A stretch of 64,000 nt of DNA from an uncultured Clostridia bacterium. GTDB taxonomy: Bacteria; Bacillota; Clostridia; DUPQ01. A program made the translations under genes and the position numbers. The stretch's first letter is position 1, and the number at the start of each line of letters is the position of its first letter. Where the stretch lies: contig CAVXZA010000002.1 of the NCBI GenBank assembly GCA_963766335.1, positions 1,037,386 through 1,101,385 on the forward strand. The letters are read 5' to 3'. Below, one piece after another: positions 26,306-57,187 of the stretch. Below the pieces are notes generated by a model. That model saw only the letters and a program-made list of their open reading frames with translations, was not told the origin of the DNA and did no database searches.

Positions 26306-26313
26306 TTTACCTC

Positions 26314-27279: not shown

Positions 27280-27281
27280 AA

Positions 27282-30994: not shown

Positions 30995-31140
30995 AAATTA
31001 ATAGATTCTTCAGGGCAGGGTGAAATTCCCGACCGGCGGTAGAGTCCGCGAGCGTAAGCTGAACCGGTTAGATTCCGGTACCGACAGTATAGTCTGGATG
31101 AAAGAAGTAATTTTTTTATACCCCTGAGGAGGGGTTTCTT
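30995..31140 (+). promoter_or_regulatory. FMN riboswitch (RFN element) with terminator
   Basis: TTCTTCAGGGCAGGGTGAAATTCCCGACCGGCGGTAGAGTCCGCGAGC...CCGACAGTATAGTCTGGATGAAAGAAG matches the RFN consensus. It is followed by the hairpin ACCCCTgaggAGGGGT plus a T-tract. Confidence 0.8.
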
Positions 31141-31164: not shown

Positions 31165-31812
31165 TTGGACAAGAGGAGACAAAAAACGATATGGATTGTA
31201 AAAGTTGCAATGCTTTCGGCAGTCGCAGCGATTCTTATGTATCTGGAAATACCCCTGCCGTTTGTCCCGCCGTTTTTAAGGTTGGATTTCAGCGATATCC
31301 CTGCACTGCTTGCAGGATTTGCAATGGGTCCGCTGGCGGGTGTCGCAGTATTGCTGGTAAAAAATGCAGTGCATGCAACAGCCTCATGGTCGTTTCTGGT
31401 GGGAGAACTGGCTAATTTCACAATAGGGGTGAGTTTTGTTCTGCCGGCGGCAATCATTTATCAAAGGCACAAAAACAAGAAAAGTGCAATTATAGGCATG
31501 CTGGTTGGAGGACTGACTATGGCTGTTACAGCTGGTTTTCTTAATGCATTTGTATTAATACCTCTATATGCTACCGTCCTGAATTTTCCGGTTGAAGCTA
31601 TTGTTGGAATGAGTAATGAAGTTAATCCTCTTATTACGGATTTAAAAACACTGATTTTCATTGGAATAACGCCGTTTAATATAGTGAAAGCGGCTGCAAA
31701 TATACTTATTGCGGCACTGATTTATAAACCGTTGTCGCCATACCTGCACCGCGATTCATTGAAAAAACCACCAAAATCCAGTCCGACAAATTATCCTACG
31801 GACACTAATTAA
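31165..31812 (+). CDS. ribU: ECF-transporter S component, probable riboflavin transporter RibU
   Basis: Small six-TM membrane protein directly downstream of an FMN riboswitch. The start is a tentative TTG at 31165 with AAGGAAGGA upstream; ATG 31210 is the alternative. Confidence 0.7.
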   Translation: MDKRRQKTIWIVKVAMLSAVAAILMYLEIPLPFVPPFLRLDFSDIPALLAGFAMGPLAGVAVLLVKNAVHATASWSFLVGELANFTIGVSFVLPAAIIYQRHKNKKSAIIGMLVGGLTMAVTAGFLNAFVLIPLYATVLNFPVEAIVGMSNEVNPLITDLKTLIFIGITPFNIVKAAANILIAALIYKPLSPYLHRDSLKKPPKSSPTNYPTDTN

Positions 31813-32947: not shown

Positions 32948-33033
32948 TACCGGAAAACGGAACATATCTAATCATATTTTCGTATAACAGATAGACGGAT
33001 AAATTCCGTACTTTGATTTCACTAGGAGTGATT

Positions 33034-34278
33034 ATGATGTATAAGAGAATTATTGCAATTATGATTGCCATAATGCTATTAGGGACAGGTTTGGCGGGTT
33101 GTTCTAAAAATGGTGAAGGAAGTTTGACCAACATTCCGAAAGTTAAGGCAGATACCATAGGCGATGAAGTGGTTGATGCTAATTCGCGGTTTGCATTTGA
33201 CATTTTAAAGGCTGTCTATTCAACTGATACAGATGGCAATGTATTCCTGTCTCCGGCAAGCATATCCATGGCGCTTGCAATGACATGGAACGGCGCCAAT
33301 GGAAATACAAAGGAAGAAATGGCTAAGGCGCTTGGGTTCGATGGTGTGAATGACATGCTAATTAACGGCGGATTCGCATACCTGGTTGATGTCCTGAATA
33401 CTGATGCAGACGGCATCACGACCAACCTGGCCAATTCAATTTGGATCAGGGAAGGATTTCCGGTCCTGGACTCATTTAAAAAAACTAATTCCGACTATTT
33501 CGCAGCTGCAATTGAAGAACTTGATTTCTCAAAGGACGAGGCTTCGGATGTCATAAACGGCTGGGTAAAGAAAAATACCAAAGGCCTCATCGATTCAATA
33601 GTTGATGACGATATTCATCCGGCAACAATAATGTTTCTGATAAATACAATATATTTCAAAGGAAATTGGCAGGTAGAATTTGATCCTGACCAGACATATG
33701 TTTCAGATTTTTATAGTAGCGGCTTGCCTGATGGTAAAGTTGACATGATGTCCTATAAGCGGAATACGCTTTTTCATGAAGCTGATGAATATAAAATAAT
33801 CAGCCTGCCATACGGAGACGGAGGAATGTTCATGGACCTGATTCTGCCTGATGAAGGCACGATGATGGATGAATTTGTAAAGCAATTTAACTACGAAGAA
33901 TACATGACTGCACTTAGCAATATCAATGAAGAGCATGATGTAATTGTAGAGATTCCCAAATTCAAGACAGAATATGAGCTTTCGCTTAAAAATGCATTGA
34001 TAAGCCTTGGTGTGGAGGAGGCTTTCACAGGAGCAGCAGACTTTACCGGTATTAATGAGGGTGGCAATATTTTCATAAGCGATGTAAAACATAAGACTTA
34101 CATAGATGTGAACGAAAAGGGGACTGAAGCAGCAGCTGTAACATCAGTTGAAATGAAACTGACTGCAGCAATGGATCCTATTGTATTCAGGGCAGACAGG
34201 CCTTTCCTCTATACAATCCGGGAAGCTGAGACCGACTCAATATTATTTGCAGGAGTCTTTGATACTCCATCAGAATAA
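33034..34278 (+). CDS. serpin (serine protease inhibitor) lipoprotein
   Basis: Serpin signatures NTIYFKGNW and FRADRPFLYTIRE are present. The N-terminal lipobox is LLGTGLAGCS. Confidence 0.8.
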   Translation: MMYKRIIAIMIAIMLLGTGLAGCSKNGEGSLTNIPKVKADTIGDEVVDANSRFAFDILKAVYSTDTDGNVFLSPASISMALAMTWNGANGNTKEEMAKALGFDGVNDMLINGGFAYLVDVLNTDADGITTNLANSIWIREGFPVLDSFKKTNSDYFAAAIEELDFSKDEASDVINGWVKKNTKGLIDSIVDDDIHPATIMFLINTIYFKGNWQVEFDPDQTYVSDFYSSGLPDGKVDMMSYKRNTLFHEADEYKIISLPYGDGGMFMDLILPDEGTMMDEFVKQFNYEEYMTALSNINEEHDVIVEIPKFKTEYELSLKNALISLGVEEAFTGAADFTGINEGGNIFISDVKHKTYIDVNEKGTEAAAVTSVEMKLTAAMDPIVFRADRPFLYTIREAETDSILFAGVFDTPSE

Positions 34279-34288
34279 ACACTAAAAC

Positions 34289-34323
34289 AAAAAAAGCACC
34301 GTTTTGAAACGGTGCTTTTTTTA
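34289..34323. terminator. bidirectional rho-independent terminator between the serpin gene and the arg operon
   Basis: AAAAAAGCACCGTTTtgaaACGGTGCTTTTTTT: a perfect stem with A/T tracts on both sides. Confidence 0.65.
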
Positions 34324-34348
34324 TGCTGCGGCCCGGGTTTAAATCAAT

Positions 34349-34822
34349 TTAATAATCCTTGACAAGTTTAGCTCGGACATAACCCCGGTCAGTGGCAGTG
34401 CTTTCGACATAAAAGCCGCGCCCGTAATAAAAGCGAACTAAATCTGTGTAGTTTGAGGCTGAGTAAAGATATGCCTTTTTCAAGCCAAGTTCCTTAATTT
34501 CAGCATCTATCAGATTCATAAGTGATTTTCCAATGCCGATATTATGATAATCAAGCCTGACGCCAAAACGCGAGATATGTGCAATGTCACCTTCAATCTC
34601 AAAACGGATTGTACCAACCGGCACATCATTAACATACGCAATGAATACTTCCGACGACCTGATTGCAATTACAGTTTCTTCAATTGTCTCATCCAGGGCT
34701 TCCATGCTGCCTGAAAGTCCGGTATCTTCCATATATTTTGTGAAGGCTTCCTGCAGGATATCGATAATAGCAGCGGCATCTGCGGATTTTGCCTTCCTTA
34801 CGGTAAATGAATAAACCGGCAT
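34349..34822 (-). CDS. GNAT-family N-acetyltransferase (candidate short-form N-acetylglutamate synthase)
   Basis: 157 aa with an acetyl-CoA binding motif (RGFYV..G.G..L). Last gene of the arg operon, 2 nt after the argF stop. Confidence 0.7.
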   Translation of the reverse strand: MPVYSFTVRKAKSADAAAIIDILQEAFTKYMEDTGLSGSMEALDETIEETVIAIRSSEVFIAYVNDVPVGTIRFEIEGDIAHISRFGVRLDYHNIGIGKSLMNLIDAEIKELGLKKAYLYSASNYTDLVRFYYGRGFYVESTATDRGYVRAKLVKDY

Positions 34823-34824
34823 TG

Positions 34825-35748
34825 CTACTCTCCTCCCATTAATTTAACCATGACAGCTTTTTGAACATGCAGGCGGTTTTCCGCTTCGTCAAAAATACGC
34901 GACTGCGGTCCGTCCATGACTTCAGCAGATACTTCAAAGCCCCTGTAACCCGGCAGGCAATGAAGAAAAATTGCAGTTGCCTCAGCTTTTTTCATCAAAT
35001 CCTTATCAACTATAAAACCGGTGAAATCTTTAATCCTGCGTTCTTTTTCTTCTTCCATACCCATGCTGACCCAGGTATCTGTATAAACAGCGGATGCATC
35101 CTTTACAGCCTCTTCTGCATTATGCCCGACGCTGACCTTACTGCCGGATTCCTTAGCAAATTCATATGCTTTGGCAATAACATCCGCATCAGGTTCATAT
35201 CCCTTGGGCGTGGCAATCGATACATCCATTCCAACCTTTGCGCACCCATAAAGAAGTGAATTAGCCATATTGTTACCGTCGCCGACATATGCAAGCTTCC
35301 TGCCTTCAATATTTCCAAACTCTTCATATATGGTAAAGATATCAGCCAAAACCTGACAGGGGTGAAGCAAATCGGTAAGCGCATTTATGACAGGAATGCT
35401 GCCATATGCCGCAAGGTCTTCAACATCGCTCTGCTTAAACGTCCGGATCATGATGCCGTCAACATATCGTGACAGTACCTTTGCCGTATCTTCGATGGTT
35501 TCGCCCCGGCCAAGCTGTATGTCGTTTGAGCTTAGGAAAAGGGGATTGCCGCCTAATTGATACATACCTGTCTCAAAAGAAACCCGTGTCCTGGTAGATG
35601 ATTTCGTAAAAATCATAGCCAACGTCTTACCTTTGAGCAAATGGTGTTCAATACCATTCTTAGTCTCATATTTCAATTTTTCAGCAAGGTTGAATATGTC
35701 CAGGATTTCTTCTTTAGATAGATGATAAAGTCCAAGCAAATGTTTCAT
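34825..35748 (-). CDS. argF: ornithine carbamoyltransferase
   Basis: STRTR carbamoyl-phosphate site, HCLP motif, length 307 aa. Confidence 0.85.
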
Positions 35749-38700
35749 TGTATTTCTCCTTTAATATATTTAGAATAACTGTCAAGCGGCAGAACCCCGC
35801 AGGTTTTCTCGCCGGTGAAATAATCCACCACAGCCAGAGCCGCTCCTGCAGTATCCAGGTTTGTAATTGAAGGAACGTTATATTCTATTGATGTCCGCCT
35901 TAAAAGGAATCCGTCCCTTTCAGGAAGCTTTCCTCTTGTCGGTGTATTTATCATTAAGGCAATCTGACCCTTTTTAACAGCTTCTATTTCATCGGCATCA
36001 GTCATTTTTTCACATACAATGTCATTAGAATTAAAAAAGTCCGATGTTCCCGAGGTTGCGCAAAGGGAATATCCATGTTCAATAAGCCTTTTGGCTAACG
36101 GCAGGCATTCTTCCTTGTCCCTGTCGGTAATACTGAGGAGGACTTTTCCGGATGAAGGAATTGTCAGACCCGAAGCTAATAAAGCCTTGTATAGTGCTTC
36201 TTCATAAACCTTTGATACTCCCATGACTTCACCGGTGGATTTCATTTCGGGGCCGAGGAATGTATCGAGGGTCGTAATCTTCGAGAATGAGAAAACAGGA
36301 GCTTTCACAGCAGTAAATTCCGGTTCTTTCGCAAGGCCGGGCCTATATCCCAGGTCTCCGAGCTTCCTGCCCATAATGAGCTGGGTAGCGACATTAACCA
36401 TAGGAATGCCGGTTATTTTACTTAATACTGGTATTGTCCTGCTTGCGCGCGGGTTTACCTCGATGACATACACTTTTCCGGCTGCGTCTGCTACAAACTG
36501 TATATTGAAAAGACCTACAATCTTAAGCGCTTTTGCCAGGCGGACAGTATAATTTACTACTGTCTCTTTTACATGAGATGAAACATTTCTTGTTGGATAG
36601 ACGGCAATGCTGTCACCCGAATGGACGCCGGCTCGTTCAATATGTTCCATGATTCCCGGAATCAGGACATCCGTCCCGTCGCATATGCCGTCTACTTCAA
36701 TTTCCATTCCAATAATATATTTATCAATCAGTATAGGATGGACCGGGGAAATGTCTACAGCCATTGCCATATATTCTTCGAGAGTAGCGTTGTCATATAC
36801 GATTTCCATGGCCCTTCCCCCGAGGACATACGAAGGCCGTACAAGAACAGGAAATCCTATCTTAGATGCAATTTCATGTGCCTCGTCGTATGAAAAGGCC
36901 GTCTTTCCCGGCGGAATGGGAATTTCTTGTTCATCCAGCAGCATCAGAAACCTGTTCCTGTCTTCGGCCATATCAATGCTGTCCTTGGAGGTCCCGAGTA
37001 TCTTAACCCCTGCTTCGTGAAGCGGGGCGGCAAGATTAATGGAAGTCTGACCGCCGAACTGCAGGATGACTCCCAATGGATTCTCCTTTTCGACTATATC
37101 AAGGACGCCTTCTTTTGTGAGTGGGTCGAAATACAATTTATCGGATATATCAAAATCGGTGCTGACGGTCTCTGGATTGTTATTTATTATGACTGATTCT
37201 ATCCCCATGTTCCTAAGCGCCTCAACCGAATGAACGCTGCAGTAATCGAACTCTATTCCCTGGCCTATGCGGATAGGGCCTGAACCGATGACAAGGACTT
37301 TGTCGTTGTCATTGTATTCAATATCGTCCTTTTCTTCGTATGTAGAATAGTAATAGGGCGTTACAGCCTCAAATTCCCCCGCACAGGTGTCAACTAGTTT
37401 ATATACTGGCTTAATGGGATATTTTTCCCTTAGCTCAAGTATTTTCTGAAGAGGCACATTAACTAGATTGGCTATGTATGAGTCGCCGAAACCCACTTGC
37501 TTTGCTTTCAGGTAAAGAGGGTAGTCAAGCCATGCTATGCCGGCATTTTTTATTTCTTCTGCAACATCAACAATTTTTTTGAGTTTCATCAGGAAAAACA
37601 TATCAATACAGGTTATTTTGTGAATTGTTTCTGCTGCTATGCCTCTTTGGAGAAGCTTGAAAATTGCAAACAGCGATTCATCTTTAGGATGCTTAATATA
37701 TTCCATAAGAGTATCGATTGACGCATTGTCAAATAATTGCAAACCAAGCTGATAATTAAGTTTTATATCAAGGGAATCGATGGCCTTAAGAAGAGCTTCT
37801 TCAAAATTCCTTCCTATTGCCATAACCTCGCCTGTGGATTTCATCTGTGTCCCCACACTGCGGTCGGCGGAATTGAATTTATCAAAAGGCCAACGCGGCA
37901 CTTTTACCACAACATAATCCAGGCTGGGTTCAAAGCAGGCGTAAGTGTTGCCTGTAATGGGATTAAGAATTTCATCCAGGTTAAGCCCGATTGCAATTTT
38001 CGCTGCGGACCGAGCTATCGGATAGCCGGTGGCCTTGGATGCGAGGGCGGATGAACGGCTGACCCTTGGATTAACTTCGATTACTATATAATCAAAACTA
38101 TCAGGATCCAATGCGAACTGGATATTGCAGCCGCCCTTTATGTCCAGAGCCCTGATAATCTTTACAGAAGCTGTCCTGAGCATCTGATAATCCTTGTCGG
38201 AAAGAGTTTGGCTGGGGGCTACTACTATACTGTCGCCGGTGTGTATTCCGACAGGATCGAAATTTTCCATATTACATACAGTTATGCAGTTATCATTACC
38301 GTCGCGCATAACCTCATATTCAATTTCCTTCCATCCGGCAACGCTTCTCTCGAGAAGCACCTGGCTTATCATTGAGAGTTTAAGGCCTTTCCCGCAAATC
38401 TCCATCAATTCTTTGTGGTTATTGGCAATGCCTCCGCCGGATCCACCCATAGTATATGCAGGGCGTATGATTACAGGGTATCCTATCTCTTGAACAAATG
38501 CCGTTGCCTCCTCCAACGAATTAACTATCTCAGAAGGAGCTATTTTTTCATTTATGGATAACATTGTGTCTTTGAACATCTCACGGTCTTCTGCTTTCTT
38601 TATTGACTCAAGCGAAGTTCCGAGCAGCTCTATATCCATTTTATAAATTATGCCGTCTTCAGCTAGTTCAATGGCCATGTTAAGACCGGTCTGACCGCCA

Positions 38701-38969
38701 AGGGAAGCCAGGATACCATCAGGTTTTTCTTTGACGATTATTTTTTTTACATATTCCAGGGTTATTGGTTCTATATATACTTTGTCGGCCGTTTCCATGT
38801 CAGTCATAATAGTTGCGGGATTGCTATTGACCAATACTACTTCAATGCCTTCTTCCCTCAGGGCGCGGCAAGCCTGGCTCCCGGAGTAATCAAACTCTGC
38901 AGCCTGTCCGATTATGATGGGACCCGAGCCTATGACCAGGACTTTTTTTATGTCTTTTCTCTTAGGCAT
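35745..38969 (-). CDS. carB: carbamoyl-phosphate synthase large subunit
   Basis: 1074 aa with duplicated ATP-grasp domains and an MGS-like C-terminus. Confidence 0.95.
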
Positions 38970-40047
38970 CAGGTTCGCCTTTCTTCATCATGTCTATGAA
39001 ATCATCAAAAATATATGCCGAATCCTCCGGACCGGGAGCGGCCTCCGGATGATATTGTATGCTGAGAAGCGGAAGTTTATCATGCCTGAATCCTTCCACA
39101 GTCTTGTCATTAACATTTATATGGGTTAAATTGATTTTCGCCGGAACATCGGCAGGAAATACTGCATAATTATGATTCTGGCTTGTTATACAGCATTTAC
39201 CCGTAATCATATCCTTTACAGGGTGATTTCCTCCGTGGTGGCCGAACTTGAGTTTATATATTTTCATTCCCAAGGCAAGAGCCAGGAGCTGGTGCCCTAA
39301 ACAGATGCCAAGCAATGGTATTTCTTTTTGTGCGAGTTCCCGGACAACAGGTATGATTTCAGTCAGGACCCTGGGATCGCCCGGGCCGTTAGATAGTAAT
39401 ATACCGTCCGGGTTAACAGCTAATATATCTTTGACGGGAGCAGACGAGGGCATTATAGTGATTCTGCAGCCTCTTTTTTTCAAAGAGCGTAAAATATTGC
39501 TCTTAACTCCGAAATCCATCAGACATACGTGAAGGCCTTCTCCGGGTATTTCATATGCCTTATCAGCAGATACTTCTTCTACAAGATTACGTTCAATGAC
39601 AGCTTCGGCCTTAAGTTTATCAAGCAGTATTTCAACGTTTCCCGAGAGAGTGGAAATAACCCCATACATGCTTCCGAAATTGCGTATATGCTGGGTCAGG
39701 GAACGCGTATCCACTCCTTTGATTCCTATAATCCCGTTGTCCTCGAAATATTTATCAGGGGCGGATTCAGCTCTGAAATTACTATGATAGTCGCAAAGCT
39801 CCTTAACGATAAATCCCTCGATATGAGTCTTGTAGGATTCATCATCTTCAGAATTCATTCCGTAATTGCCTATAAGGGGATAGGTCATGCACACCATCTG
39901 CCCATTGTAGGAAGGATCGGTGGTGATTTCCTGATAACCTGTCATGCAGGTATTGAAAACAACTTCGCCAAATGCATCGCCCGAAGCACCGAATGATTCT
40001 CCTGTATAGTAAGTGCCGTCTTCAAGGACGAGAACAGCTTTCATCAA
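38962..40047 (-). CDS. carA: carbamoyl-phosphate synthase small subunit (glutaminase)
   Basis: CPSase small-chain N-domain plus a class I GATase with the catalytic LGICLGHQ motif. Confidence 0.9.
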
Positions 40048-41255
40048 GATTCCTCCCCGGAAATTTCCTCAAGTATATCTTCAAGCATATCGCATACTAA
40101 ATCAACATGCTTCTTTTTGAGAATCAGTGGAGGAAGAAGGCGTATTATTGATGATTTCACACTGCCGATGAGTATATTATTTTCGAACATTTTATCTTTT
40201 ACTTCAATGGCAATCTCTTTATTAAATTCAATACCTATCATAAGGCCCAGACCCCGGACGTCCTTTATAATGTCATAGTGCATCTTAAGCCCATTCAGCT
40301 TGCCAATCAGGTATTTCCCCATATATTCGCTGTTTTCAACCAGTTTTTCATCTTTAAAAGCCCTGAAGACCGCAAGACCTGCCGCACATGCCAGGGGGTT
40401 GCCGCCGAAAGTCGATCCATGGTCGCCGGGTTCAAAGTATCTGGCGACATAGTCTTGTGCACAAACGGCACCTATGGGGAAACCTCCCCCCAGTGCCTTG
40501 GCCAATGTGAATATGTCGGGTTTGACATCAAAATGCTCATATCCGTACATCTTGCCGGTTCTGCCCATTCCAGACTGGACTTCGTCAAATATAAGGATTA
40601 TATCATTGGCAAAACATAAACTTCTAACGCCTTTTATATAATCATATGTTGCGGGATTCACACCGCTTTCCCCCTGTATTGGTTCAAGCATGACAGCGCA
40701 GGTATTCTCATCGACTGCATCCTTAAGTGCCTGAAGGTCGTTCATAGGAACGGATTTAAATTTCGGTGTCAGGGGGCTGAAGGGTTCCTTATATTTAGGT
40801 TGCCCGGTTGCGGCTATAGTGGCAAGCGTCCTCCCGTGGAATGAGTTTTCAAGGGTAATAATCTCATACCTTTTGTCGTTGCCTTTTTTCTTGTGATACA
40901 AACGGGCTAGTTTTATAGCGCCTTCATTGGCCTCGGCACCGCTGTTTGAGAAAAACACTTTGTCTGCGCATGACGACCTGCATATTGTCTTGGCAAGATT
41001 AGCCTGGTTTTCAATGTAATAAAGGCTTGAACAATGAATAAGCTTTCTGGCTTGCTCAGTTATAGCGTCAACCAGCAAAGGATGGCTGTGGCCAAGGGCA
41101 TTTACGGCGATACCGCCGAGAAAATCGAGGTATTGTTTATTATTGTTTGTATATAGATACATACCATTGCCGTAATTGAACGCCACCGGTGTCCTGTCTC
41201 CGAAAGTGTTCATAAAAAATTGTTTGTCCCTGAAAATAATTTCGCTAAGTTCCAT
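40044..41255 (-). CDS. argD: acetylornithine aminotransferase
   Basis: Class III PLP aminotransferase. The arg operon context supports the ArgD assignment. Confidence 0.85.
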   Translation of the reverse strand: MELSEIIFRDKQFFMNTFGDRTPVAFNYGNGMYLYTNNNKQYLDFLGGIAVNALGHSHPLLVDAITEQARKLIHCSSLYYIENQANLAKTICRSSCADKVFFSNSGAEANEGAIKLARLYHKKKGNDKRYEIITLENSFHGRTLATIAATGQPKYKEPFSPLTPKFKSVPMNDLQALKDAVDENTCAVMLEPIQGESGVNPATYDYIKGVRSLCFANDIILIFDEVQSGMGRTGKMYGYEHFDVKPDIFTLAKALGGGFPIGAVCAQDYVARYFEPGDHGSTFGGNPLACAAGLAVFRAFKDEKLVENSEYMGKYLIGKLNGLKMHYDIIKDVRGLGLMIGIEFNKEIAIEVKDKMFENNILIGSVKSSIIRLLPPLILKKKHVDLVCDMLEDILEEISGEES

Positions 41256-41352
41256 TGTGCTTCCTCCTGTAATAGTAATCCGGGCATCCGCCTGGCCATA
41301 ATGTCAACTATGCTTATTTTTTAAAATAACCGTACTGGGTTCTATTTAAAAA

Positions 41353-43221
41353 TCATGTTGCAGTGGCCTTTTTTAGCTTGAATTTCATTTTTATTCGGTT
41401 TGAATTTTTCACCGCAATGTATTTTTTGTATTTGCCGTTCCTGTTTCCGAGAATATCTGTTGAGGCTTGGAAATTTCCATCTGTTTCGATAGTGTAAATC
41501 CATCCTAATGCCGAAATTGTAAGACGGTTGTCCTCCTCTTTTATAATAGACTTATCACGGCCGTTTGTCATGAAAGCCGGCGTCAGAAAATAAATTTTAT
41601 CTTCTTCCGGGTTGTTTAAAATTGATTCAATTTCAACCCCTTCGCCGGTAATTTTATAAATTTCTGTAACACCGTCAATCCCTTTAAGAGCTTCCCCTGA
41701 ATAGCTTAATGACAGCACTGTTTTGTCAGGGGATTCTTCAATTACCTCAGTTTTGTGTAATAATCCATTATTGAACGAGTCTTTGAATGCTTCAAAGGAT
41801 CCTTTGCTGTCAAAATTATCCTTAATATAATCAAAGCTATGGCTGCTTTTATTGCTTGCGGTTGCCAGAAATTCTATATCGTTTGATTTATTCCAGCCGG
41901 GCGAAAGCGCCATGGCTTCGGGCACGCAACCCGGCGTGCCGTACCTGTGATGACGAAGAATCCCGGCTGAACCCGAGATAGCCAGCTCAGTTGGAACCCC
42001 GTTTTTATGAATCCGCCCGAGACCGGTGGAATCGTAAAAGAAATCTGCCGCTGTGTCCAATTCTATGGAATATGAAGCGCAGTTTGCAAATACCTTATGG
42101 AAGTGTTCCGTGGTTTCAAATACATATCCGCCCAACTCAGCAGGGCAGGGGAACTCATCTATCGTGTCATCTGCAAAAGGCATTCCTATGAAAAGGAAAA
42201 CACCCATTGTCATCATATATTTGTCAAAATAGCCATAACCTTCAACGCCGAATTTGCTTTCCACAGGGTAGAAATTTTTCATATGTCGGGCGCCGTCATC
42301 AGCTTTAAGCCACCTTGAGATTGATTTTATTGCCAGCCTGGCTGCCCTTTTATACATCCCTGCAAGTTTTAGGTTCCCTTCTTTCTTCCATCTTGTGGCT
42401 TCGTATTCAAAATTGGATGTCAGCAAAGACTCATTAAAAAGATATTGGTTGCTGCGGCCTCCGAATGGGAGCTGGAAAGCCGAAGATTGATAGAATAAGG
42501 CTGTTAATGCTCCTTTTTTAAGATTGTCATCAAGCTTTTTTGCATATTTCCCGTTATAACCGTAGCCAGTAATAAGTTGTGCCTGGACACGGGTCGTAAG
42601 GTCGTAAAGCATTGGATTGTAAGGGTCCATATACATCCCATTATCGTCGAAATACTTAAACTGATGGTCCCAGTATTTATCAAAGAACTCTTCTGTATCT
42701 GTATATCCCTCTGTTTCCAGCAGCCACGAACCGGCCATGGCATATATATTCCAGTTGCGTATGTGATCCCAGCTTTTGCGGTGCGTTTCAGTGTTGCTAT
42801 ACTGTGTTTCAGGGTCAACCTTTCCTAAAAGGGTCAACCACTCTTTTTGTTTTTCATCACTAACAAACGGCTTCATGGCTTTGAAACCAAGCATTGTTTC
42901 TTTTAATGCGAAATCCAGTGTATTTGGAGGAACCTGCCGGTAAAAATCATTACACAGTGCTTCCATCATTGAAAACCACAGCTCTTTATATTCCGGTATC
43001 CGCCCATTGGAAAGCAGGCCCGCGATTCCGCAGGCTATACGTGAATAAGCATGGATGTCGTCAACCATCCCGCCGGGTTCCGGAAGACGGTCTTCAAGCG
43101 ATTTTTTATCATATGCTTTTACACAGAGCTCAATTACATCAAGATAATCTTTTTTTCCAACTCCGGATGTTGTGAAATTCTCAGGCATTTCTGCGTTTTC
43201 TACATATTTGAAAAAATCCAT
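41353..43221 (-). CDS. hypothetical cytoplasmic protein (about 620 aa), family not recognised
   Basis: Long intact ORF inside the arg operon with no signal peptide and no confidently recognisable motif. Start chosen at ATG 43221 with AAGGAAGGG upstream; a GTG at 43236 is the alternative. Confidence 0.5.
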   Translation of the reverse strand: MDFFKYVENAEMPENFTTSGVGKKDYLDVIELCVKAYDKKSLEDRLPEPGGMVDDIHAYSRIACGIAGLLSNGRIPEYKELWFSMMEALCNDFYRQVPPNTLDFALKETMLGFKAMKPFVSDEKQKEWLTLLGKVDPETQYSNTETHRKSWDHIRNWNIYAMAGSWLLETEGYTDTEEFFDKYWDHQFKYFDDNGMYMDPYNPMLYDLTTRVQAQLITGYGYNGKYAKKLDDNLKKGALTALFYQSSAFQLPFGGRSNQYLFNESLLTSNFEYEATRWKKEGNLKLAGMYKRAARLAIKSISRWLKADDGARHMKNFYPVESKFGVEGYGYFDKYMMTMGVFLFIGMPFADDTIDEFPCPAELGGYVFETTEHFHKVFANCASYSIELDTAADFFYDSTGLGRIHKNGVPTELAISGSAGILRHHRYGTPGCVPEAMALSPGWNKSNDIEFLATASNKSSHSFDYIKDNFDSKGSFEAFKDSFNNGLLHKTEVIEESPDKTVLSLSYSGEALKGIDGVTEIYKITGEGVEIESILNNPEEDKIYFLTPAFMTNGRDKSIIKEEDNRLTISALGWIYTIETDGNFQASTDILGNRNGKYKKYIAVKNSNRIKMKFKLKKATAT

Positions 43222-43232
43222 TACCCTTCCTT

Positions 43233-44240
43233 TCACGACTGTGTCATCATGACTGCTTTTTCTGCTGTAATTTCAAATTCGAGTGGTTTTTCTTCAATAA
43301 TATTGCTGATTTCTTTTATCATAGCTTCTGCATATTCCAATACAACGCTGGAGCCGGACACATGAGGCATGCAAATTACGTTTGGAAGATTTCTTAGCTC
43401 ACTATCCGGTGCAAGGGGTTCTTCTTCAAAAACATCAAGTGCGGCATATATTCTGCCGGATTTTAACACTTCTGTTAAATAGGCTTCGTCAATTATGCTG
43501 CCCCTGGCAGTATTAACAAGAAGAGCATTGTTTTTAATGGTGTCAATCCGGTCTTTTCCTATCAGTCTTTGTGAGCCGGGGTTCCGGGAAGCGTGAATTG
43601 AAATTATATCGGCTTTTCTAAACGCAGCATCCAGGTCATGTATGAAATCTACATCGGAATATGCATTGATTACTTCTTTTGTTAAATAGGGATCATATAC
43701 TTTCAGGTTTATATTGAAAGGAACAAGAAGTTCGTATAGGAATTTTGCAATGTCACCGAATCCAATAAAAAGCACATCGGCTCCGTGGAGGCTTTTCATG
43801 TCCCCGTACTCTCCAATACCACTTTTCCAGCCGCCGTTCCTTGTTATATTTGTATATTTAAAGAGTTTTAAACGCGACGCAAGGAAATAAGCCAGCGTGC
43901 TTTCAGCTACGGCCTTCGCCATGACTTTATTTGAGCTTGATACCCGGATTCCCTTTTTATATACTTCGGGACATACTATGTTATATACGCTTCCGGCACA
44001 GTGTCCTATGAACTTAAGGCTATCAGCATTTTCAAGGACCTTTGGTGTAATCTGCGGCGATTGCCAGTGGGTTATGCATACGTCCATGCCTTTGATTTCC
44101 TCCGCTAGCTCTTCTTCTGTCCACGGGCGGTCAAGCATGTTTTGTTTAACATGTCCGAGTGCTTCCAGTTTTTTCATGATTTTACGGGGAAAATATTTTT
44201 CTTTAATCATTCCTTCACAAACACTTAAAAGAATATTCAT
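43233..44240 (-). CDS. D-isomer-specific 2-hydroxyacid dehydrogenase family protein
   Basis: NAD-binding motif GIGEYGDMKSLHGADVLFIGFGDIAKFL and a catalytic His/Glu/Arg region are present. The start overlaps the argB stop (TGATG). Confidence 0.75.
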   Translation of the reverse strand: MNILLSVCEGMIKEKYFPRKIMKKLEALGHVKQNMLDRPWTEEELAEEIKGMDVCITHWQSPQITPKVLENADSLKFIGHCAGSVYNIVCPEVYKKGIRVSSSNKVMAKAVAESTLAYFLASRLKLFKYTNITRNGGWKSGIGEYGDMKSLHGADVLFIGFGDIAKFLYELLVPFNINLKVYDPYLTKEVINAYSDVDFIHDLDAAFRKADIISIHASRNPGSQRLIGKDRIDTIKNNALLVNTARGSIIDEAYLTEVLKSGRIYAALDVFEEEPLAPDSELRNLPNVICMPHVSGSSVVLEYAEAMIKEISNIIEEKPLEFEITAEKAVMMTQS

Positions 44241-45154
44241 CACGATTCCTCCCATACTTTCTCGTCTTCAAAGTACTTATCTTTTGCCTGGGAAATCATT
44301 GTTCCTATTCCTTTGTTAGTGAATATTTCCAGTAGTATGCAGTGTGGGATTCGACCGTCAATTATATGGGTGCGGCCAACGCCGTTTTCGATTGCATGGA
44401 CGCAGCCGAGAACCTTTGGTATCATGCCGCCTTCAATTACGCCCTCGCCGATGAGGGTATGAACTTCATCTGTTGAAAGGGCATGAAGTATATCACCATC
44501 GTCTTTTGAAGTTTTAACACCTTCAACATCGGTCAGCAGGATTAGTTTTTCAGCCTTCATTGCACTTGCTATTTTCCCGGCGACTGTATCAGCGTTTATA
44601 TTATATGCCTTGCCCTCTGGACCCGATCCGATAGGTGCAATAACAGGTATATATTCATAAGATGACAAACGGGCTAATGCAGCAGCATCAATTTCAGTAA
44701 TATCTCCGACATAGCCGATGTCAACAGCTTCACCGTTAACTTCTGCATAATGCTTTTTGCATTTTATTATGCCTGCATCAATTCCCGAGATGCCGATGGC
44801 CTTGCCGCCTTTTTTATTCATCCGTGAAACTATATCCTTATTTGTTTTGCCAACAAGCACCATCTGCACCACTTCCATTGTGGCTTCATCGGTAACCCTT
44901 AGGCCATTTATGAAATTTGATTCTATGCCTGAATCCTTTAATGTACTTGATATGGCCGGACCTCCGCCGTGTACTATAATAGGATTCATACCGATATACT
45001 TAAGAAGCGTGACGTCTTCCATCACTGAATCTTTCAGTGTTTCATTTATCATTGCGTTTCCACCGTACTTTATGACGACTGTTTTCCCGTAAAGCCGCTG
45101 TATATAAGGCAGTGCTTCAATCAGTATTTCTGCTTTTTTAATTAATTTTTCCAT
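44240..45154 (-). CDS. argB: acetylglutamate kinase
   Basis: Amino-acid kinase fold with an ArgB-like sequence ([17 protein letters not shown]). Confidence 0.9.
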
Positions 45155-45200
45155 AATTTACCTCATTCCGGATTTCATCATTTCCTGATTCAGGTTGAAA

Positions 45201-46241
45201 TCATATGTATAGTCCGGCGCTTAGCAAACCGTCGGTTTCCGGGTATCCGTGCATTAAGTTCAGGTTCTGTACAGCTTGTGAAGCCGCCCCTTTGCCAAGG
45301 TTGTCAATGGCTGAAATCACAATAATCCTGTTCATTCGTTCGTCGTAAAAGGGGGCGATGTCCGCAAAATTCGTTCCGGCGACGGCTTTAACTGACGGTA
45401 TGTCTCCATCTTCCTTGATCCTTATAAAAGTCTCTCCTTTATAATACATATTATATATATCAATTAAATCCTTGGTTTTCAGTGGCTTTTTTGCATTAGT
45501 ATAAATCGTAGCCGACATACCCCTTTTAAAGGGAGCCAGGTGGGGTGTGAATCCCGCGGTTACGGTTTTGCCTGCCAACAGTGACAGCTGCTCTTCAATT
45601 TCGGTTGTATGCCTGTGACCGGTTATTTTATACGGAGCAAAATTTCCGTCAACCTCACAGTAGGAGTAAGGTAGGCTGGCTTTTCGCCCGGCGCCTGAAA
45701 CACCGGATACTGCGCTTATATTAATAGTATTGATATCTATCAGATTATTTTCCAGCAGCGGTGCGAGGCCAAGGATTGAACAGGTGGGATAACAGCCGGG
45801 ATTAGCTATTAATGCCGCATCTTTGATTTTCTCGCGGTTAAGTTCCGGCAATCCGTAGACAGCCTTTTCAAGAAGGTCAGGGTATCCATGTGGAAGTCCA
45901 TATGTTTTTTCATATAATTCCGCTGAAGTGTACCGGTAGTCGGCGCTGAGGTCAACGACCTTTTTACCGGATGATATCAGTTTGAAGACGGCTTCCTGGC
46001 TTGCCGCATGAGGGAGTGCAGTAATAAAGCAATCTGCTTTCCCTGATATAACATTATAGTCAGTGGCTTCGCACACAAGGTCGCAGATACCGCTCAAACT
46101 GGGATAAACATCAGAAATTTTCCTGTCTTTGAAGGTTTTGGAAACAACGCAGGTTATCAAAAAACCGGGATGACCGGCAAGGAGCCTTATGCATTCAGCC
46201 CCTGCATAACCCGTAGCACCGATGATTCCTACTTTTATCAT
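45201..46241 (-). CDS. argC: N-acetyl-gamma-glutamyl-phosphate reductase
   Basis: Semialdehyde dehydrogenase fold with an active-site Cys (NPGCYPT). First gene of the operon. Confidence 0.9.
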   Translation of the reverse strand: MIKVGIIGATGYAGAECIRLLAGHPGFLITCVVSKTFKDRKISDVYPSLSGICDLVCEATDYNVISGKADCFITALPHAASQEAVFKLISSGKKVVDLSADYRYTSAELYEKTYGLPHGYPDLLEKAVYGLPELNREKIKDAALIANPGCYPTCSILGLAPLLENNLIDINTINISAVSGVSGAGRKASLPYSYCEVDGNFAPYKITGHRHTTEIEEQLSLLAGKTVTAGFTPHLAPFKRGMSATIYTNAKKPLKTKDLIDIYNMYYKGETFIRIKEDGDIPSVKAVAGTNFADIAPFYDERMNRIIVISAIDNLGKGAASQAVQNLNLMHGYPETDGLLSAGLYI

Positions 46242-46323
46242 TATTTTATCCTCCCGCTTGTTATTATACCAAATAGCATATTTTATAACTAAATTAAATA
46301 ATTTTTCATAATTATACAGAATT

Positions 46324-46339
46324 ATGCATAAAAATGCAA
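46324..46339. promoter_or_regulatory. putative ArgR/AhrC operator (ARG-box-like) upstream of argC
   Basis: ATGCATAAAAATGCAA resembles the TGnATwwwwATnCA ARG-box core. It lies about 85-100 bp upstream of the argC start in an AT-rich promoter region. Confidence 0.25.
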
Positions 46340-46500
46340 CATATTTTTATATCGGTTTTTCAAAATTTACTGTGCTTGGATAGTTTATGCAATTCATACA
46401 AATAGGTAATTGTTTTTTTGTAATAATCAACACTTATAACATAATAGTAAAAGTGTTAAGATTAAGTAGAAGTTTTTATAGAAAAACGGGAGGAATTAAA

Positions 46501-47625
46501 ATGGCAAAAGTTATAGTAAGAAACGTATATAAAAAGTATGAACCTTCACGTGGTGGAATTACCGCTGTATCCGACTTCAATCTTTCAATTGAAGACAAGG
46601 AATTCTTGGTTCTGCTAGGCCCATCAGGTTGTGGTAAAACAACAACACTCAGAATGATAGCCGGACTTGAAGATATAACCGCCGGTGAAATCTATATCGG
46701 AGATAAACTCGTTAATGACGTACAGCCAAAAGACAGAGACATCGCAATGGTTTTCCAGAATTATGCACTGTATCCCCATATGACGGTTTTCGACAATATG
46801 GCATTCGGACTTAAACTCAGAAGAACACCTAAAGATGAAATTAAACAGAGAGTTCATGAAGCCGCCAGGATTCTTGAAATCGAACATCTTCTTGACAGAA
46901 AACCAAAAGCACTATCCGGCGGGCAGCAGCAGAGGGTTGCACTCGGTCGTGCTATAGTCCGAGAACCAAAAGTATTCCTCATGGACGAACCGCTTTCTAA
47001 CCTTGACGCCAAGCTGAGGGGACAGATGAGGGTTGAGCTCACAAAACTTCACCAGAGATTGCATACAACGATTATCTTCGTTACACATGACCAGGTTGAA
47101 GCCATGACAATGGGTACCAGGATTGTTTGTATGAAGCTCGGATTCATCCAGCAGGTTGACATACCGCAGGTAATGTATGAAAATCCGGTTAATATGTATG
47201 TTGCAGGATTCATCGGAACTCCTCAGATGAACTTTATTGACGGTCTGATTACCGAAGACGGTAAAACTGTTTACCTCACCTTAGGCAATTCAAAGATTAA
47301 GCTTCCCGAAAGCAGGGCAGCTAAAATTACCGGCCAGGGTTACGACTTGAAGGAAGTTGTTATCGGCATGAGACCGGAGCATCTACATGATGAGCAAATG
47401 TATATTGATTCAATGCCCGGTGCAGTTGTTGATGCAAGCGTAGAAGTTGTGGAATTGATGGGACCCGAAGCACTTGTATATTGTGTAATTGAAGGAACAA
47501 ACATGATTGCACGTGTTAAACCTCATACAAAAGCAAGACCCGGCGATTCTATCAAAATGGCCATCGATACAAGCAGGATTCATATATTTGATAAAGAAAC
47601 AGAAAACGTGCTCTTCAACGAGTAG
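46501..47625 (+). CDS. sugar ABC transporter ATP-binding protein (MalK/MsmX/UgpC family), stand-alone
   Basis: Walker A GPSGCGKTT, LSGGQQQRVALGRA signature, a C-terminal TOBE/MalK regulatory domain, and a GGAGGAA RBS. Confidence 0.8.
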   Translation: MAKVIVRNVYKKYEPSRGGITAVSDFNLSIEDKEFLVLLGPSGCGKTTTLRMIAGLEDITAGEIYIGDKLVNDVQPKDRDIAMVFQNYALYPHMTVFDNMAFGLKLRRTPKDEIKQRVHEAARILEIEHLLDRKPKALSGGQQQRVALGRAIVREPKVFLMDEPLSNLDAKLRGQMRVELTKLHQRLHTTIIFVTHDQVEAMTMGTRIVCMKLGFIQQVDIPQVMYENPVNMYVAGFIGTPQMNFIDGLITEDGKTVYLTLGNSKIKLPESRAAKITGQGYDLKEVVIGMRPEHLHDEQMYIDSMPGAVVDASVEVVELMGPEALVYCVIEGTNMIARVKPHTKARPGDSIKMAIDTSRIHIFDKETENVLFNE

Positions 47626-48422: not shown

Positions 48423-51400
48423 ATGAAAATATTACTCAAACCGCTGCAGGACATCCCGCAGTTCGACGGGATTATAAAGACCATTTCAGCCGGAAAAGGA
48501 CCCGTTGGAGTCAACGGCCTGGTTGATCCGGCAAGGGCTATTTTCGCATATGCGCTTTTTCAGAAAACCGGAAGACGATGTCTAATACTAACCCACAGCC
48601 GGGTCAAGGCAAAAAAAATATATGAAGGACTGCGTATATTTGATTCCGACGGTGCATTGCATTTTCCCACAAGGGAACTGATGCCTTTCGAAATAGAAGC
48701 TCGAAGCCACGGTTATGAGACTGAAAGAGTAAATGCACTTTACAGATTCGCCATAAATGATTACTCGGTTGCCGTCGCTCCTATTGAAGCAATGTGCATA
48801 AGAATTCGGCAAAAAGGAGGAATTTCTTAAAAAAGTCATAAACATAGAGAAAGCAAAAGAGTATGAAAGGGACAAACTGTCCGAAGAGCCTTACTGGCAT
48901 CCGGTTATGAAAAATGCGACATGGTTGAAAGCGAAGGCCAGTTCGCGGTTCGCGGAGACATCTTTGATATATATTCACCCGGCAGCGACAGGCCATGCAG
49001 AATTAATTTTTTCGGAGATGAGGTAGAAAATATCAAATTTTTTGACCCGGGCACCCAGCTGTCGGATGAAGAAACTGCAATCTGTATTAATATTGCCTTG
49101 CAGCGAGCAGACCGGCTCACTAAAAGATATCATTGAAAAGTTAAAAGCAGTTCCAAATCCGCCAGCGCCGATTTCCTCGGATATAGAAAAGATTGAAAAC
49201 GGTCTTTTGCATTTTCCGATGGACAAACATTTCGCCTTGGTGGACGGAACCTGTTTTGCCACATCATATATAGATGAAGATACAATCATTATCCTTGATA
49301 ATGATAAACGCTGCCTGCGAAAAATGAATACCGTTCTTGAAAGAATACGGCACCACATGTGAAAAACTTCTTGAAACACAATCCGCCGTGCCTGAATCAT
49401 GCATGATGGTAGCCGGTCTGTTTGAATCAATGGGGAAAAGGGAACCTGGGATTATTATCCCCGACATAACCGGTCCGGATGACGAGTTTAGCCTTTACAG
49501 GCAATTTAGCATACTTACAAGGGAAAACCCGTCTTACGGCGGCAGGATGGACCTGCTTCTAGAGGACATCAGGAAATGGAAATCAAAAGGGCGCAGAACA
49601 GCTCTTATTGCACCGTCAAAAAAGAGCAGCCATATATTATCCGATTACCTTGCATCCAATAATATAGACATACACGGCCGAAACAATTATAACGGAGACA
49701 TACACGCAGGAACAGTTGTCATGCTGGACAACGGACCTGCTGAAGGATTTGAAATACTTGAAGCCGGCCTTTGTGTGGTCGGGAGCGGTAAAATTTTCAG
49801 AAAAAGCAAGAAAGAGCAGACAGAACGGAAAAAGCAAAAAGGCATGGATTTATTCGCTGACTTAAAACCAGGGGATTTCGTTGTCCATGATTACCATGGA
49901 ATAGGCAAATACATAGGTATAGAGAATATCAAAGCCGCGGGAATACGCCGCGATTATGTAAAGGTTGAATATAAAAAGAGCGACTACGTATATATACCGG
50001 TAGATAAACTTGATTCAATCCAAAAATACATTGGAAGCGGGGGAAGGGCCCCGAGGCTGTCAATACTGGGCGGCAAAGAGTGGGAGAATACAAAAGCGCG
50101 GGTTAAGGAATCCGTCAAGAACATTGCCAAAGAACTTGTTGAACTATATGCCAAACGTAAAGCTAACAAGGGGCACAGATATTCTGCCGATACAATATGG
50201 CAGGTGTCATTTGAAGAAGAATTCCCGTTTGAAGAGACAAACGACCAACTGCGCTGCATTGATGAAATAAAAGGGGATATGGAATCCGATATCATAATGG
50301 ACAGGCTTCTCTGCGGGGATGTAGGCTATGGAAAAACGGAAGTGGCGCTGCGGGCTGCATTTAAGGCGGTTATGGATGGAAGACAGGTGGCATTCCTGGT
50401 TCCTACAACTGTGCTTGCCTACCAGCATTACAATACATTTAAAAGCAGGATGAAGAATTTCCCTGTTAACATCGAACTTATGTGCCGTTTCAGAAGCAAA
50501 AAACAGCAGCAGCGGACATTAGAGGGTTTAAGGGCGGGAAGCGTTGACATTGTGGTCGGCACGCACAGGCTGCTTCAAAAAGACATTGTGTTCAAAAAGC
50601 TTGGACTGCTTGTAGTAGACGAAGAGCAGAGGTTCGGTGTAGAGCATAAAGAAACAATTAAGAACTATAAAAACGACATTGATGTCCTTACCCTGACTGC
50701 AACTCCCATTCCGCGGACGCTTCACATGTCGCTGTCAGGTATACGTGACATAAGCGTCATTGAAGATCCGCCTGCAAAGCGGTTCCCCGTCCAGACATAT
50801 GTAATGGAATATGACCCGGATGTAATAAGGGATGCAGTCGACCGTGAAATCAGCAGGGGAGGCCAGGTTTTCTACCTTTATAACCGTGTCAGGGAAATGG
50901 ACAGCAAGTATGCTAAACTTAAACAACTCCTGGGCGATGAGGTAAGGATAGGAATCGCCCACGGGCAGATGGATGAAAATAAGCTTGAAAATGTAATGGT
51001 TGATTTCATCAAAGGCGATTATGATGTCCTTCTATGTACAACAATTATAGAATCAGGCCTGGATATCCCGAATGTCAATACAATGATTATTGAAGACTCG
51101 GACAGGATGGGACTGTCGCAGCTCTACCAGATAAGGGGCAGGGTAGGCAGGTCCGACAAAGTCGCCTATGCATACATAACCCATAAACATGGGAAAGTTA
51201 TAACAGAGGACGCATCTAAAAGACTTGAAGCAATAAGGGAATTCACGGAGTTCGGTTCAGGATTCAAAGTGGCAATGCGCGACCTTGAAATCAGGGGCGC
51301 CGGAAATCTTCTCGGCGCAAACCAGCATGGACATCTTGAAAGGATTGGCTACGATCTATATGTAAGGATACTTAAACAGGGCTGTCAAGGAACTCGGCGG

Positions 51401-51915
51401 GGAAAGTTGAAGAAGAAGAGATTCGGACAGCTGCACTGTTGAACTTAATATAAATGCATTTATTGACAAAGAATACATCAGCAATGACCTGATGCGAATG
51501 GAAATGTATAAGAAAATAGCGGTTGTTTCAGATGAAAAACAGAAAAAGAGACTGCTTAGATGAAATGACAGACCGTTTCGGAACACCGCCTGCACGAAAC
51601 TATGGTGCTGCTTGAAGCGGCTCTTGTAAAAAACCTTGCAGCGGCATGTGGTATTGAATCCGTAACTAAGAAACAAATCAGATATAATATTCACTTTTGC
51701 AGAAGGACAGATTCCCGCCTCCTGAAATTCTTGCCAGGCTTCCTGAAATCCTGCCGGGAAGGGCGGTGGTCAGTATGGGAGTTAAGCCCGGAATCAGGCT
51801 TAATAATTTCAAACGGGAAGATGTAGATTTTTCGGCAATATATAAATTGCTGGCATGTATTGAAAATCAGCAAATCATAATATATAGAAACAGTATGTTA
51901 TCTTGCAAAAGATGA
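48423..51915 (+). pseudogene. mfd: transcription-repair coupling factor Mfd, disrupted by multiple frameshifts
   Basis: Mfd-homologous segments occur in alternating frames (48423-48830 f0, about 48815-48915 other frame, 48921-49136 f0, 49042-49362 f1, 49337-51442 f2, then at least four more frame changes to 51915). The helicase motifs DVGYGKTEVALRAAF and the GDFVVHDYHGIGKY RID region are recognisable. Confidence 0.8.
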
Positions 51916-52151
51916 TTATAAAACTATATTTATGATTAGAAATGTGCACAAAATCATTAGAAAAATCCTATATTTAACAAAAAGACAACATTTGTTACAA
52001 AATTGTAAAATTATTAATACATAATTATATAAAAATATCGCAAAAACACAATATTTTGTGGTATATTAGGGTATATAAAACACAAGTATTAGTGGTTCAT
52101 TCAAACTGTTGTCAATACAAGATTGGTCAATTTGCTTTATAGAATCTAAAA

Positions 52152-52177
52152 ATTGTTAAAAATTGTTAAAATATGTT
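52152..52177. repeat. short tandem direct repeat (AAAAATTGTTA x2) in the AT-rich intergenic region upstream of the pilin gene
   Basis: The sequence aaaaattgttaaaaattgttaaaat is seen directly. Confidence 0.6.
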
Positions 52178-52298
52178 ATTATAAGTTGCATTTTTTTTAT
52201 CGAAGTGTAATAATTAGTAGTAGATAAATGGGGATGTTAGCATAGATAAAACCCGGAAAGCATAATCCGGGACAACAAATTTTATGGAGGGTTACAAA

Positions 52299-52676: not shown

Positions 52677-52769
52677 AAGTAGCAATGTACTTGTTAGTCA
52701 TTTAGTAATTTTATTTTCCCGGCGAGGTTATCCCGCCGGGGAATAAGTTTTATATTTCAGAACGGGTGG

Positions 52770-53283: not shown

Positions 53284-53301
53284 ATATTGGAGGTGTTCTA
53301 A

Positions 53302-54182: not shown

Positions 54183-54190
54183 ACAATGCA

Positions 54191-54817: not shown

Positions 54818-54835
54818 TGACCGGCTGAGGATAAA

Positions 54836-57180: not shown

Positions 57181-57187
57181 TGTTGAT

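Follow-up and report, generated by a model that had tools for sequence, protein, structure and literature searches.

Organization of the operon

The 64,000-nucleotide (nt) stretch of DNA analyzed here, referred to below as the window, belongs to contig CAVXZA010000002.1 of an uncultured Clostridia bacterium and carries an arginine biosynthesis operon in which two genes from outside the arginine pathway lie between argB and argD. The listing of open reading frames (ORFs) in the window contains nine head-to-tail ORFs on the minus strand, running from 46241 to 34349 in the order argC-argB-2HADH-622-aa gene-argD-carA-carB-argF-GNAT (Table 1), where 2HADH denotes a 2-hydroxyacid dehydrogenase and the next gene encodes a protein of 622 amino acids (aa). 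This order had been proposed in an earlier note made from the sequence, and it is confirmed by the ORF coordinates together with the NCBIfam and Pfam identities of the products. The arrangement resembles the Bacillus subtilis-type argCJBD-carAB-argF operon: argC, argB, argD, carA, carB, and argF follow one another in the same order on one strand, an arginine-specific carAB pair is contained within the operon, and an ARG-box-like palindrome lies over the promoter. Unlike that operon, the one in the window lacks argJ, has an additional GNAT gene at its 3' end, and carries the two non-arg genes between argB and argD.

The end of argB reads ...GAATCGTGATGAAT, and the most likely start of the 2HADH gene, the ATG at 44240, overlaps the argB stop codon (TGATG); reading of the junction thus bears out what the earlier note had said of it. 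The note had also called the insert co-translated; the coupling to argB stands, but the insert is better described as translationally coupled and, probably, co-transcribed. The 335-aa product that results from this start is on record, exactly, in public assemblies (P0122). The adjacent large protein, previously given as 627 aa, is corrected to 622 aa by its most likely start, the ATG at 43221, which lies behind AGGAAGGG (P0001). Between its gene and argD there is a spacer of 97 nt, inside which a TTGACA hexamer is found. The argF product scored only 204 bits against the acetylornithine carbamoyltransferase model NF003384 (cutoff, 288), and it is a classical ornithine carbamoyltransferase, not one of the acetyl- or succinyl-ornithine type.

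Table 1. Features of the arginine operon, its flanks, and related loci (window positions unless a locus is named)
Feature	Product or description	Position	Strand	Basis
Promoter/operator region	Upstream region of the arg operon	46243..46402	-	Sequence reading and alignment with relatives
argC	N-acetyl-gamma-glutamyl-phosphate reductase, 346 aa	45201..46241	-	TIGR01850, 421.9 bits (cutoff, 233.6)
argB	N-acetylglutamate kinase, 304 aa	44240..45154	-	TIGR00761, 246 bits (above curated cutoff)
2HADH	D-isomer-specific 2-hydroxyacid dehydrogenase, 335 aa	43233..44240	-	PF02826 and PF00389
622-aa gene	Member of an undescribed family, cytoplasmic, heparinase-like fold; putatively a lyase or C5-epimerase acting on uronates	41353..43221	-	
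argD	Acetylornithine aminotransferase, 403 aa	40044..41255	-	TIGR00707, 495 bits (above curated cutoff)
carA	Carbamoyl-phosphate synthase small subunit	38962..40047	-	TIGR01368, 482.6 bits (above curated cutoff)
carB	Carbamoyl-phosphate synthase large subunit	35745..38969	-	NF003671, 1543.9 bits (above curated cutoff)
argF	Ornithine carbamoyltransferase	34825..35748	-	NF001986, 452 bits (cutoff, 306)
GNAT	Acetyltransferase, 157 aa, last gene of the operon	34349..34822	-	PF00583, PF13673, PF13508
Terminator	Intrinsic, 17-bp stem and T-run, 3' of GNAT	34287..34324	-	
MalK/MsmX-like gene	Sugar-ABC ATPase without adjoining permeases, divergent from argC; likely true start ATG at 46498	46387-47625	+	
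PilZ gene	PilZ-domain gene of related operons (in L105 between argB and argF)	L128:2927-3601; L105:4085-4759		

Upstream of argC, a sigma-70-like promoter was recognized, with a -35 element TTGCAT (46339-46334), a 17-nt spacer, and a -10 element TATAAT (46316-46311). The -35 element is overlapped by a perfect 14-bp palindrome, TGCATTTTTATGCA (46338-46325), which resembles an ArgR (ARG) box and is the sole exact match in the window to the ARG-box-like pattern TGMATWWWWATKCA. A second element, TGGTATAAT, is found at 46271-46263, and a further upstream block is conserved around 46402-46384. In an alignment, these promoter/operator blocks were kept in the argC upstream regions of six relatives (L088, L003, L005, L006, L008, and L083). 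A scan of the minus strand of the window detected no terminator between argC and GNAT, and the only strong intrinsic terminator on that strand is the one that follows GNAT. The operon is probably bound and controlled by ArgR at this operator and probably transcribed as a unit.

Absence of argJ

The lack of argJ from the operon, also claimed in the earlier note, is confirmed: argC and argB are separated by a spacer of only 46 nt that contains no argJ, and an ArgJ motif scan gave no match in the window or in 90 related loci. Pfam annotation of the remaining ORFs of the window revealed no argJ, no argE, and no other arg genes. Since argF encodes a classical ornithine carbamoyltransferase, the acetyl group of acetylornithine has to be removed, and the window contains no candidate gene for this step. 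ArgB aligns from residue 7-8 onwards, including an N-terminal helix with EALPYI, with its best solved relatives, the enzymes of Pseudomonas aeruginosa (2buf; 311 bits) and Thermotoga maritima (2bty; 300 bits), and its sequence places it in the arginine-sensitive, hexameric type of N-acetylglutamate kinase. In the literature, this type is associated with acetyl recycling by ArgJ, and the type of ArgB therefore hints that argJ may be located elsewhere in the genome.

The 622-aa protein has a predicted polysaccharide lyase-like fold

No Pfam or NCBIfam model matched the 622-aa protein, and a sequence search of the PDB with its family profile returned chance matches only. An AlphaFold model built on a 36-sequence alignment (pLDDT, 93.3; pTM, 0.93) consists of an (alpha/alpha) helical toroid (residues 1-363) and an antiparallel beta-sandwich (residues 364-622). 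When this model was compared with the PDB using Foldseek, all of the best matches were polysaccharide lyases (E values from 1e-10 to 1e-7; identity of about 10%), the top ones being GAGase VII (PL35), PL15 Atu3025, PL17 Alg17c, PL33 BT4410, and heparinases II and III; dermatan-sulfate epimerase is also among the closest folds, together with heparinase III, PL35, and PL17. On the evidence of the model, the protein is a member of an undescribed family with a heparinase III/PL35/PL17-like fold and is putatively a uronate-acting lyase or C5-epimerase. At 50% identity, the family falls into about 1,100 clusters (E value of ≤0.001); it has no Pfam model, and its invariant residues are N156, Y206, R211, Y222, R256, H313, N316, Y329, and H405.

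The N terminus lacks a signal peptide, and the protein is predicted to be cytoplasmic. Of the earlier description as a large cytoplasmic unknown, the location stands; the protein is not featureless, having both this fold and a carbohydrate-related family context. Its toroid-plus-sandwich architecture is common to the heparinase II/III-like lyases (PL12, PL35, PL17, PL15, and PL21) and dermatan-sulfate epimerase, and its cytoplasmic location is common to the PL15 and PL17 oligo-uronide lyases. Sequence identity to the heparinase-like lyases is only about 7 to 12%, and the protein falls outside every Pfam lyase model. Unlike those lyases, members of its family are paired or fused with a 2HADH and, in the clade described below, sit within an amino acid operon.

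The 2HADH and its partnership with the 622-aa family

The 2HADH scored below the cutoff of every NCBIfam equivalog, the best being phosphoglycerate dehydrogenase and glyoxylate reductase, and its best solved relative is 1wwk. It retains GFGDIA (residues 160-165), D183, R246, E272-274, and H293, so that the catalytic Arg-Glu-His set is intact. With the GHRB/SERA-like D-2-hydroxyacid dehydrogenases (glyoxylate/hydroxypyruvate reductases and short phosphoglycerate dehydrogenases), it has in common PF02826/PF00389, the GxGxxA motif, the Asp for NAD, and the Arg/Glu/His residues; unlike them, it forms a subfamily of its own that recurs beside, or fused with, the heparinase-like family. Its closest homologues outside the arg clade (L089 and L090) are not located beside a member of the 622-aa family.

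One genome per species was scanned with an alignment of the 622-aa family, which yielded 139 relatives, of which 80 were kept. The match is surrounded by arg genes in only seven of these 80 (L002 to L008, metagenome-assembled genomes [MAGs] of Clostridia with 60 to 75% identity), where the gene order is that of the window. Outside this arg clade, the family is found in the company of a large sugar-ABC binding lipoprotein (21 loci) and its permeases (19 and 18 loci); AraC-type regulators, sensor kinases, SDR and OYE proteins, and a 645-aa FAD protein are further recurrent neighbors. Fusions of family members to CBM96, GDSL esterase, DUF4861, right-handed beta-helix, aldose 1-epimerase, and AraC domains also occur. 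The 622-aa family thus belongs to glycan/uronate metabolism.

The association with a 2HADH extends beyond the arg clade. In a neighbor-joining tree of the family, members with an adjoining 2HADH appear on several separate branches; the arg clade forms a monophyletic group, and its sister branch contains the nearest outgroup with such an arrangement (L009/L070; 43 to 44% identity for the large protein and 41 to 42% for the 2HADH). In that outgroup, the pair is flanked by an amidohydrolase gene and a divergent Cys-type sulfatase gene. In one protein (P0085), a heparinase-like portion is fused to a C-terminal 2HADH, and its locus (L086:1854-9561) also encodes a xylose-isomerase-like TIM barrel, an OYE-type FMN oxidoreductase, an SDR protein, a 647-aa FAD_binding_2 protein, and AraC regulators. 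Identity drops in the same way for both proteins: inside the arg clade it is at least 61% (2HADH) and at least 60% (622-aa protein), and outside the clade it does not exceed 47%. The recurrent adjacency and fusion, together with this matching identity gap, indicate that the two genes function as a pair and were moved together. A cluster similar to the P0085 locus, with no pathway assigned to it, recurs in L044, L045, and L051.

The insertion is old and the inserted genes are maintained

Further carriers of the insert are L088 (83% identity), the metagenomic locus L095, and L097/L098, so that the pair occupies the same place in at least 11 distinct contigs (L001 to L008, L088, L095, and L097/L098). 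In the relatives, argB and the 2HADH gene overlap or lie 2 to 3 nt apart, and in five of the six relatives checked, the 622-aa gene and argD either overlap or are separated by up to about 33 nt; in L088 this gap may be longer, at 18 to 110 nt according to which argD start is used.

Selection could be estimated on a single pair, the window and L088, because dS (the synonymous rate) was saturated for all other relatives; the ratios of nonsynonymous to synonymous rates (dN/dS) for this pair were 0.040 for the 2HADH and 0.062 for the 622-aa gene, compared with 0.026 for argB, 0.046 for argD, 0.074 for argC, and 0.078 for carA. Members of the arg clade keep the invariant columns of the whole 622-aa family, and the GC content (0.41 to 0.42) and GC3 (0.38 to 0.42) of the two genes match those of the neighboring genes. 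Taken together, the low dN/dS values, the kept residues, and the matched composition indicate that the insertion is old and that the genes are maintained. Recent horizontal transfer of the pair was rejected, since its GC and GC3 equal those of the neighbors, and pseudogene status was rejected on the grounds of purifying selection and the kept invariant residues. In the L008 MAG the large ORF is split; this break is probably an assembly error, because carB is split in the same MAG.

The argB/argD junction has also been occupied by another gene. In another lineage of this operon family, at least nine metagenomic loci (L105, L113, L120, L127, L128, L131, L133, L134, and L148) have a gene for a 224-aa PilZ-domain protein between argB and argD, with spacers of about 210 to 350 nt on either side. 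In insert-free operons, the argB-argD spacer measures 250 nt (L082) or 40 nt (L083). The presence of unrelated genes at this junction on at least two occasions, together with the variable spacer, favors a permissive site over recruitment driven by the pathway. The arginine operon of that lineage thereby encodes a protein of the cyclic di-GMP-binding (PilZ) type.

The ancestral operon and its terminal GNAT

In Ruminiclostridium sufflavum (L082) and two JGI contigs (L083 and L084), a divergent MalK-like ABC ATPase gene is followed by argC-argB-argD-carA-carB-argF-GNAT. These operons have neither argJ nor the two extra genes and otherwise have the arrangement of the window; the divergent ATPase gene is kept beside the arg operon in all three and in L088. 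More than 700 homologues of the GNAT were retrieved, of which the best 120 were 59 to 100% identical and included some from named Ruminiclostridium and Pseudobacteroides. A metagenome scan with a GNAT alignment gave 79 loci, 57 of which have at least 1.2 kb of upstream sequence; the GNAT gene directly follows argF in 52 of the 57 and carB in another 4, and the sole exception is a partial match. Because insert-free, argJ-less, GNAT-ended operons are found in the wider group (L082 to L084 and most of L099 to L166), the insertion came later, as an event of its own. Most of the 79 metagenomic loci have the ancestral layout, in which the pair is missing while the divergent ATPase gene and the GNAT at the end are present. 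The lack of argJ in the operon and the terminal GNAT are ancestral traits of a wide Ruminiclostridium-related group and are independent of the insert; the tie between the three that the earlier note had implied is therefore not upheld.

The gene argF is missing from the operon in L003, L005, L008, L094, L095, L097, and L098, where GNAT follows carB after about 20 to 100 nt. Since argF is lost from part of the insert-bearing clade while GNAT stays, GNAT has been kept more faithfully than argF.

The GNAT carries the acetyl-coenzyme A (acetyl-CoA) motif HNIGIGK at residues 93 to 99. Several unrelated sequence types of stand-alone GNAT N-acetylglutamate synthase (NAGS) are known (S-, O-, H-, and C-NAGS), including S-NAGS, the ArgA of Mycobacterium tuberculosis; O-NAGS, the 146-aa ArgO of Campylobacter jejuni; and C-NAGS of Corynebacterium glutamicum (PMC4490483). 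GNATs in arg operons have also been proposed as ArgA substitutes by context alone, as in the candidate ArgA2 of Bacteroidetes (PMC9026213). As in those cases, a single GNAT domain of about 150 aa is encoded here beside arg genes, in an operon without a classical ArgA, and the genome-context logic is the same as in the ArgA2 proposal. Literature searches returned these general precedents for GNAT-type NAGS and nothing specific on argJ or NAGS in thermocellum/Ruminiclostridium, nor anything specific on a lyase and 2HADH in arg operons. The earlier suggestion that the GNAT is a candidate NAGS is upheld by its constant position as the last gene in 56 of 57 loci and in R. sufflavum. This evidence is positional, and strong of its kind, and makes the terminal GNAT a strong candidate for a stand-alone NAGS.

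Interpretation

We cautiously favor the view that the locus is a normal, ArgR-type arginine/carbamoyl-phosphate operon that has received a conserved and selected sugar-acid cassette at a permissive junction, and that the cassette does not carry out a step of arginine synthesis. We postulate that the ancestral operon, argC-argB-argD-carA-carB-argF-GNAT, was present in Ruminiclostridium-related Clostridia and that, in the ancestor of one subclade, a preformed two-gene cassette entered the argB/argD junction and became translationally coupled to argB. The most likely reaction of the 622-aa enzyme would be abstraction of the C5 proton from a uronic acid residue of an oligosaccharide taken up by the cell; the enzyme would then be an exolytic lyase or, with lower probability, a C5-epimerase. 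A lyase would release a 4,5-unsaturated uronate, which would open to a 2-oxo acid, and this product would most likely be reduced by the NAD-dependent 2HADH. The cassette would thus ride on the arg transcript as a working sugar-acid module. The GNAT would most likely make N-acetylglutamate from acetyl-CoA and glutamate, and an enzyme that deacetylates acetylornithine, of the ArgJ or ArgE type, would be encoded elsewhere.

Several observations weigh against this interpretation. ArgR control and co-transcription are read from sequence alone. When 36 members of the 622-aa family were compared with Pfam (E value of ≤1), no Pfam family was common to more than 2 of the 36, and none was a lyase model; the canonical Asn/His/Tyr lyase residues could not be mapped on the structural model. 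No substrate was identified for the pair, and no transporter or downstream enzymes of the kind found beside family members elsewhere are part of the cassette. The GNAT, unlike known stand-alone NAGS enzymes, falls far below the S-NAGS equivalog NF005921 (21.3 bits; cutoff, 180), as it does below NF005840 (20 bits; cutoff, 154). Among solved structures, those closest to it in sequence are Naa50 and archaeal acetyltransferases, and a fold search with its model (pLDDT, 91.9), which does not discriminate function, returned generic GNATs; none of the best 50 was a NAGS. Finally, tight packing in most relatives and long retention form the pattern expected of genes that share the function of their operon, and they therefore keep a link to arginine metabolism under consideration.

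The transcriptional part of this proposal has its own alternative, in which the pair is expressed separately from a promoter inside argB and argD to GNAT are served by an internal promoter, giving two or three transcription units. Such a layout would suit the hexamer in the spacer before argD in the window, the long argB-argD spacer of R. sufflavum, the wide spacers around the PilZ insert, and the presence of promoter-like hexamers inside argB. However, promoter-like hits were only slightly more numerous than expected in shuffled sequence (40 found versus 29.4 expected, with a standard deviation of 5.7), the region from argC to GNAT contains no terminator, the 2HADH start overlaps the argB stop codon, and in most of the relatives checked there is little or no spacer between the 622-aa gene and argD. 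We regard separate expression as unlikely.

Less probable still, in our view, is that the pair was recruited into arginine metabolism, where it would either replace the ArgJ/ArgE step or feed or protect the pathway via a 2-oxo or 2-hydroxy acid related to glutamate or ornithine. In its favor, all clade members have the pair inside the operon and translationally coupled, purifying selection on it is as strong as on the arg genes, and the operon lacks a deacetylase or ornithine acetyltransferase, yet a classical ArgF needs free ornithine. The sister operons, however, have the same gap without having the pair, glycans are indicated by the fold and by all of the family contexts, an unrelated PilZ gene occupies this junction in another lineage, and ArgB is of a type associated in the literature with ArgJ-using organisms. 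We know of no amide hydrolysis or acetyl transfer chemistry for the heparinase-like fold, and our analysis found no link of the pair to arginine chemistry or to a step of arginine synthesis.

A broader form of this idea is that the pair has acquired an arginine or ornithine role (for example, nonorthologous deacetylation of acetylornithine or processing of a 2-oxo acid of the arginine pathway) and that, independently, the GNAT is a new sequence type of NAGS across Ruminiclostridium-like Clostridia. We consider this improbable; to our knowledge, arginine-metabolism chemistry has never been reported for this fold. It is only if the pair acts in arginine metabolism that the locus would be a major surprise.

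That the pair has lost its function and is now a passenger in decay is highly improbable: the absence of a biochemical link to its neighbors and the split ORF of L008 would fit, but the other eight clade loci spanning the gene have unbroken ORFs, the dN/dS values are 0.04 to 0.06, the family-wide invariant residues are kept, and the L008 break is probably an assembly error.

If the sugar-acid cassette interpretation is correct, the 622-aa protein represents an undescribed and fairly large family of lyase-like cytoplasmic proteins with a recurrent 2HADH partner, possibly a new polysaccharide lyase or epimerase family. The GNAT would be a well-supported and easily testable candidate for a further nonorthologous NAGS in cellulolytic Clostridia, with a bearing on metabolic models of the Ruminiclostridium/Acetivibrio type. 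The locus would also be a clean natural case of a foreign cassette fixed in a core biosynthetic operon, at a junction that took a different gene in another lineage.

Other features of the window

A bacterial serpin gene (PF00079; E value of 4e-111) at 33013-34278 on the plus strand converges on the terminator of the arg operon. On the other side of the operon, gene calls are fragmented at 48423-59900 (plus strand), where there are many ORFs of 70 to 130 aa. In this region, mfd/TRCF is split over frames (48423-48830, 49042-49362, and 49337-51442, followed by short ORFs), fragments of a type II/IV secretion ATPase and of T2SSF are found at 55487-56014 and 56486-57175, and the GC content falls to 0.36 to 0.39 at 56 to 60 kb. 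The fragmentation reflects either local assembly errors of the indel type or a run of pseudogenes.

Two riboswitches are present: a lysine riboswitch (14141-14310, minus strand) precedes asd-dapA-dapB (13064-14140, 12167-13051, and 11400-12158), and an FMN riboswitch (31002-31113, plus strand) precedes the gene for an ECF-transporter S component (31165-31812). Between them, at 23896-28304 on the minus strand, two Gfo/Idh/MocA oxidoreductase genes are clustered with those of a xylose-isomerase-like TIM barrel and an MFS transporter, a set typical of sugar or C-glycoside/inositol-type oxidation pathways.

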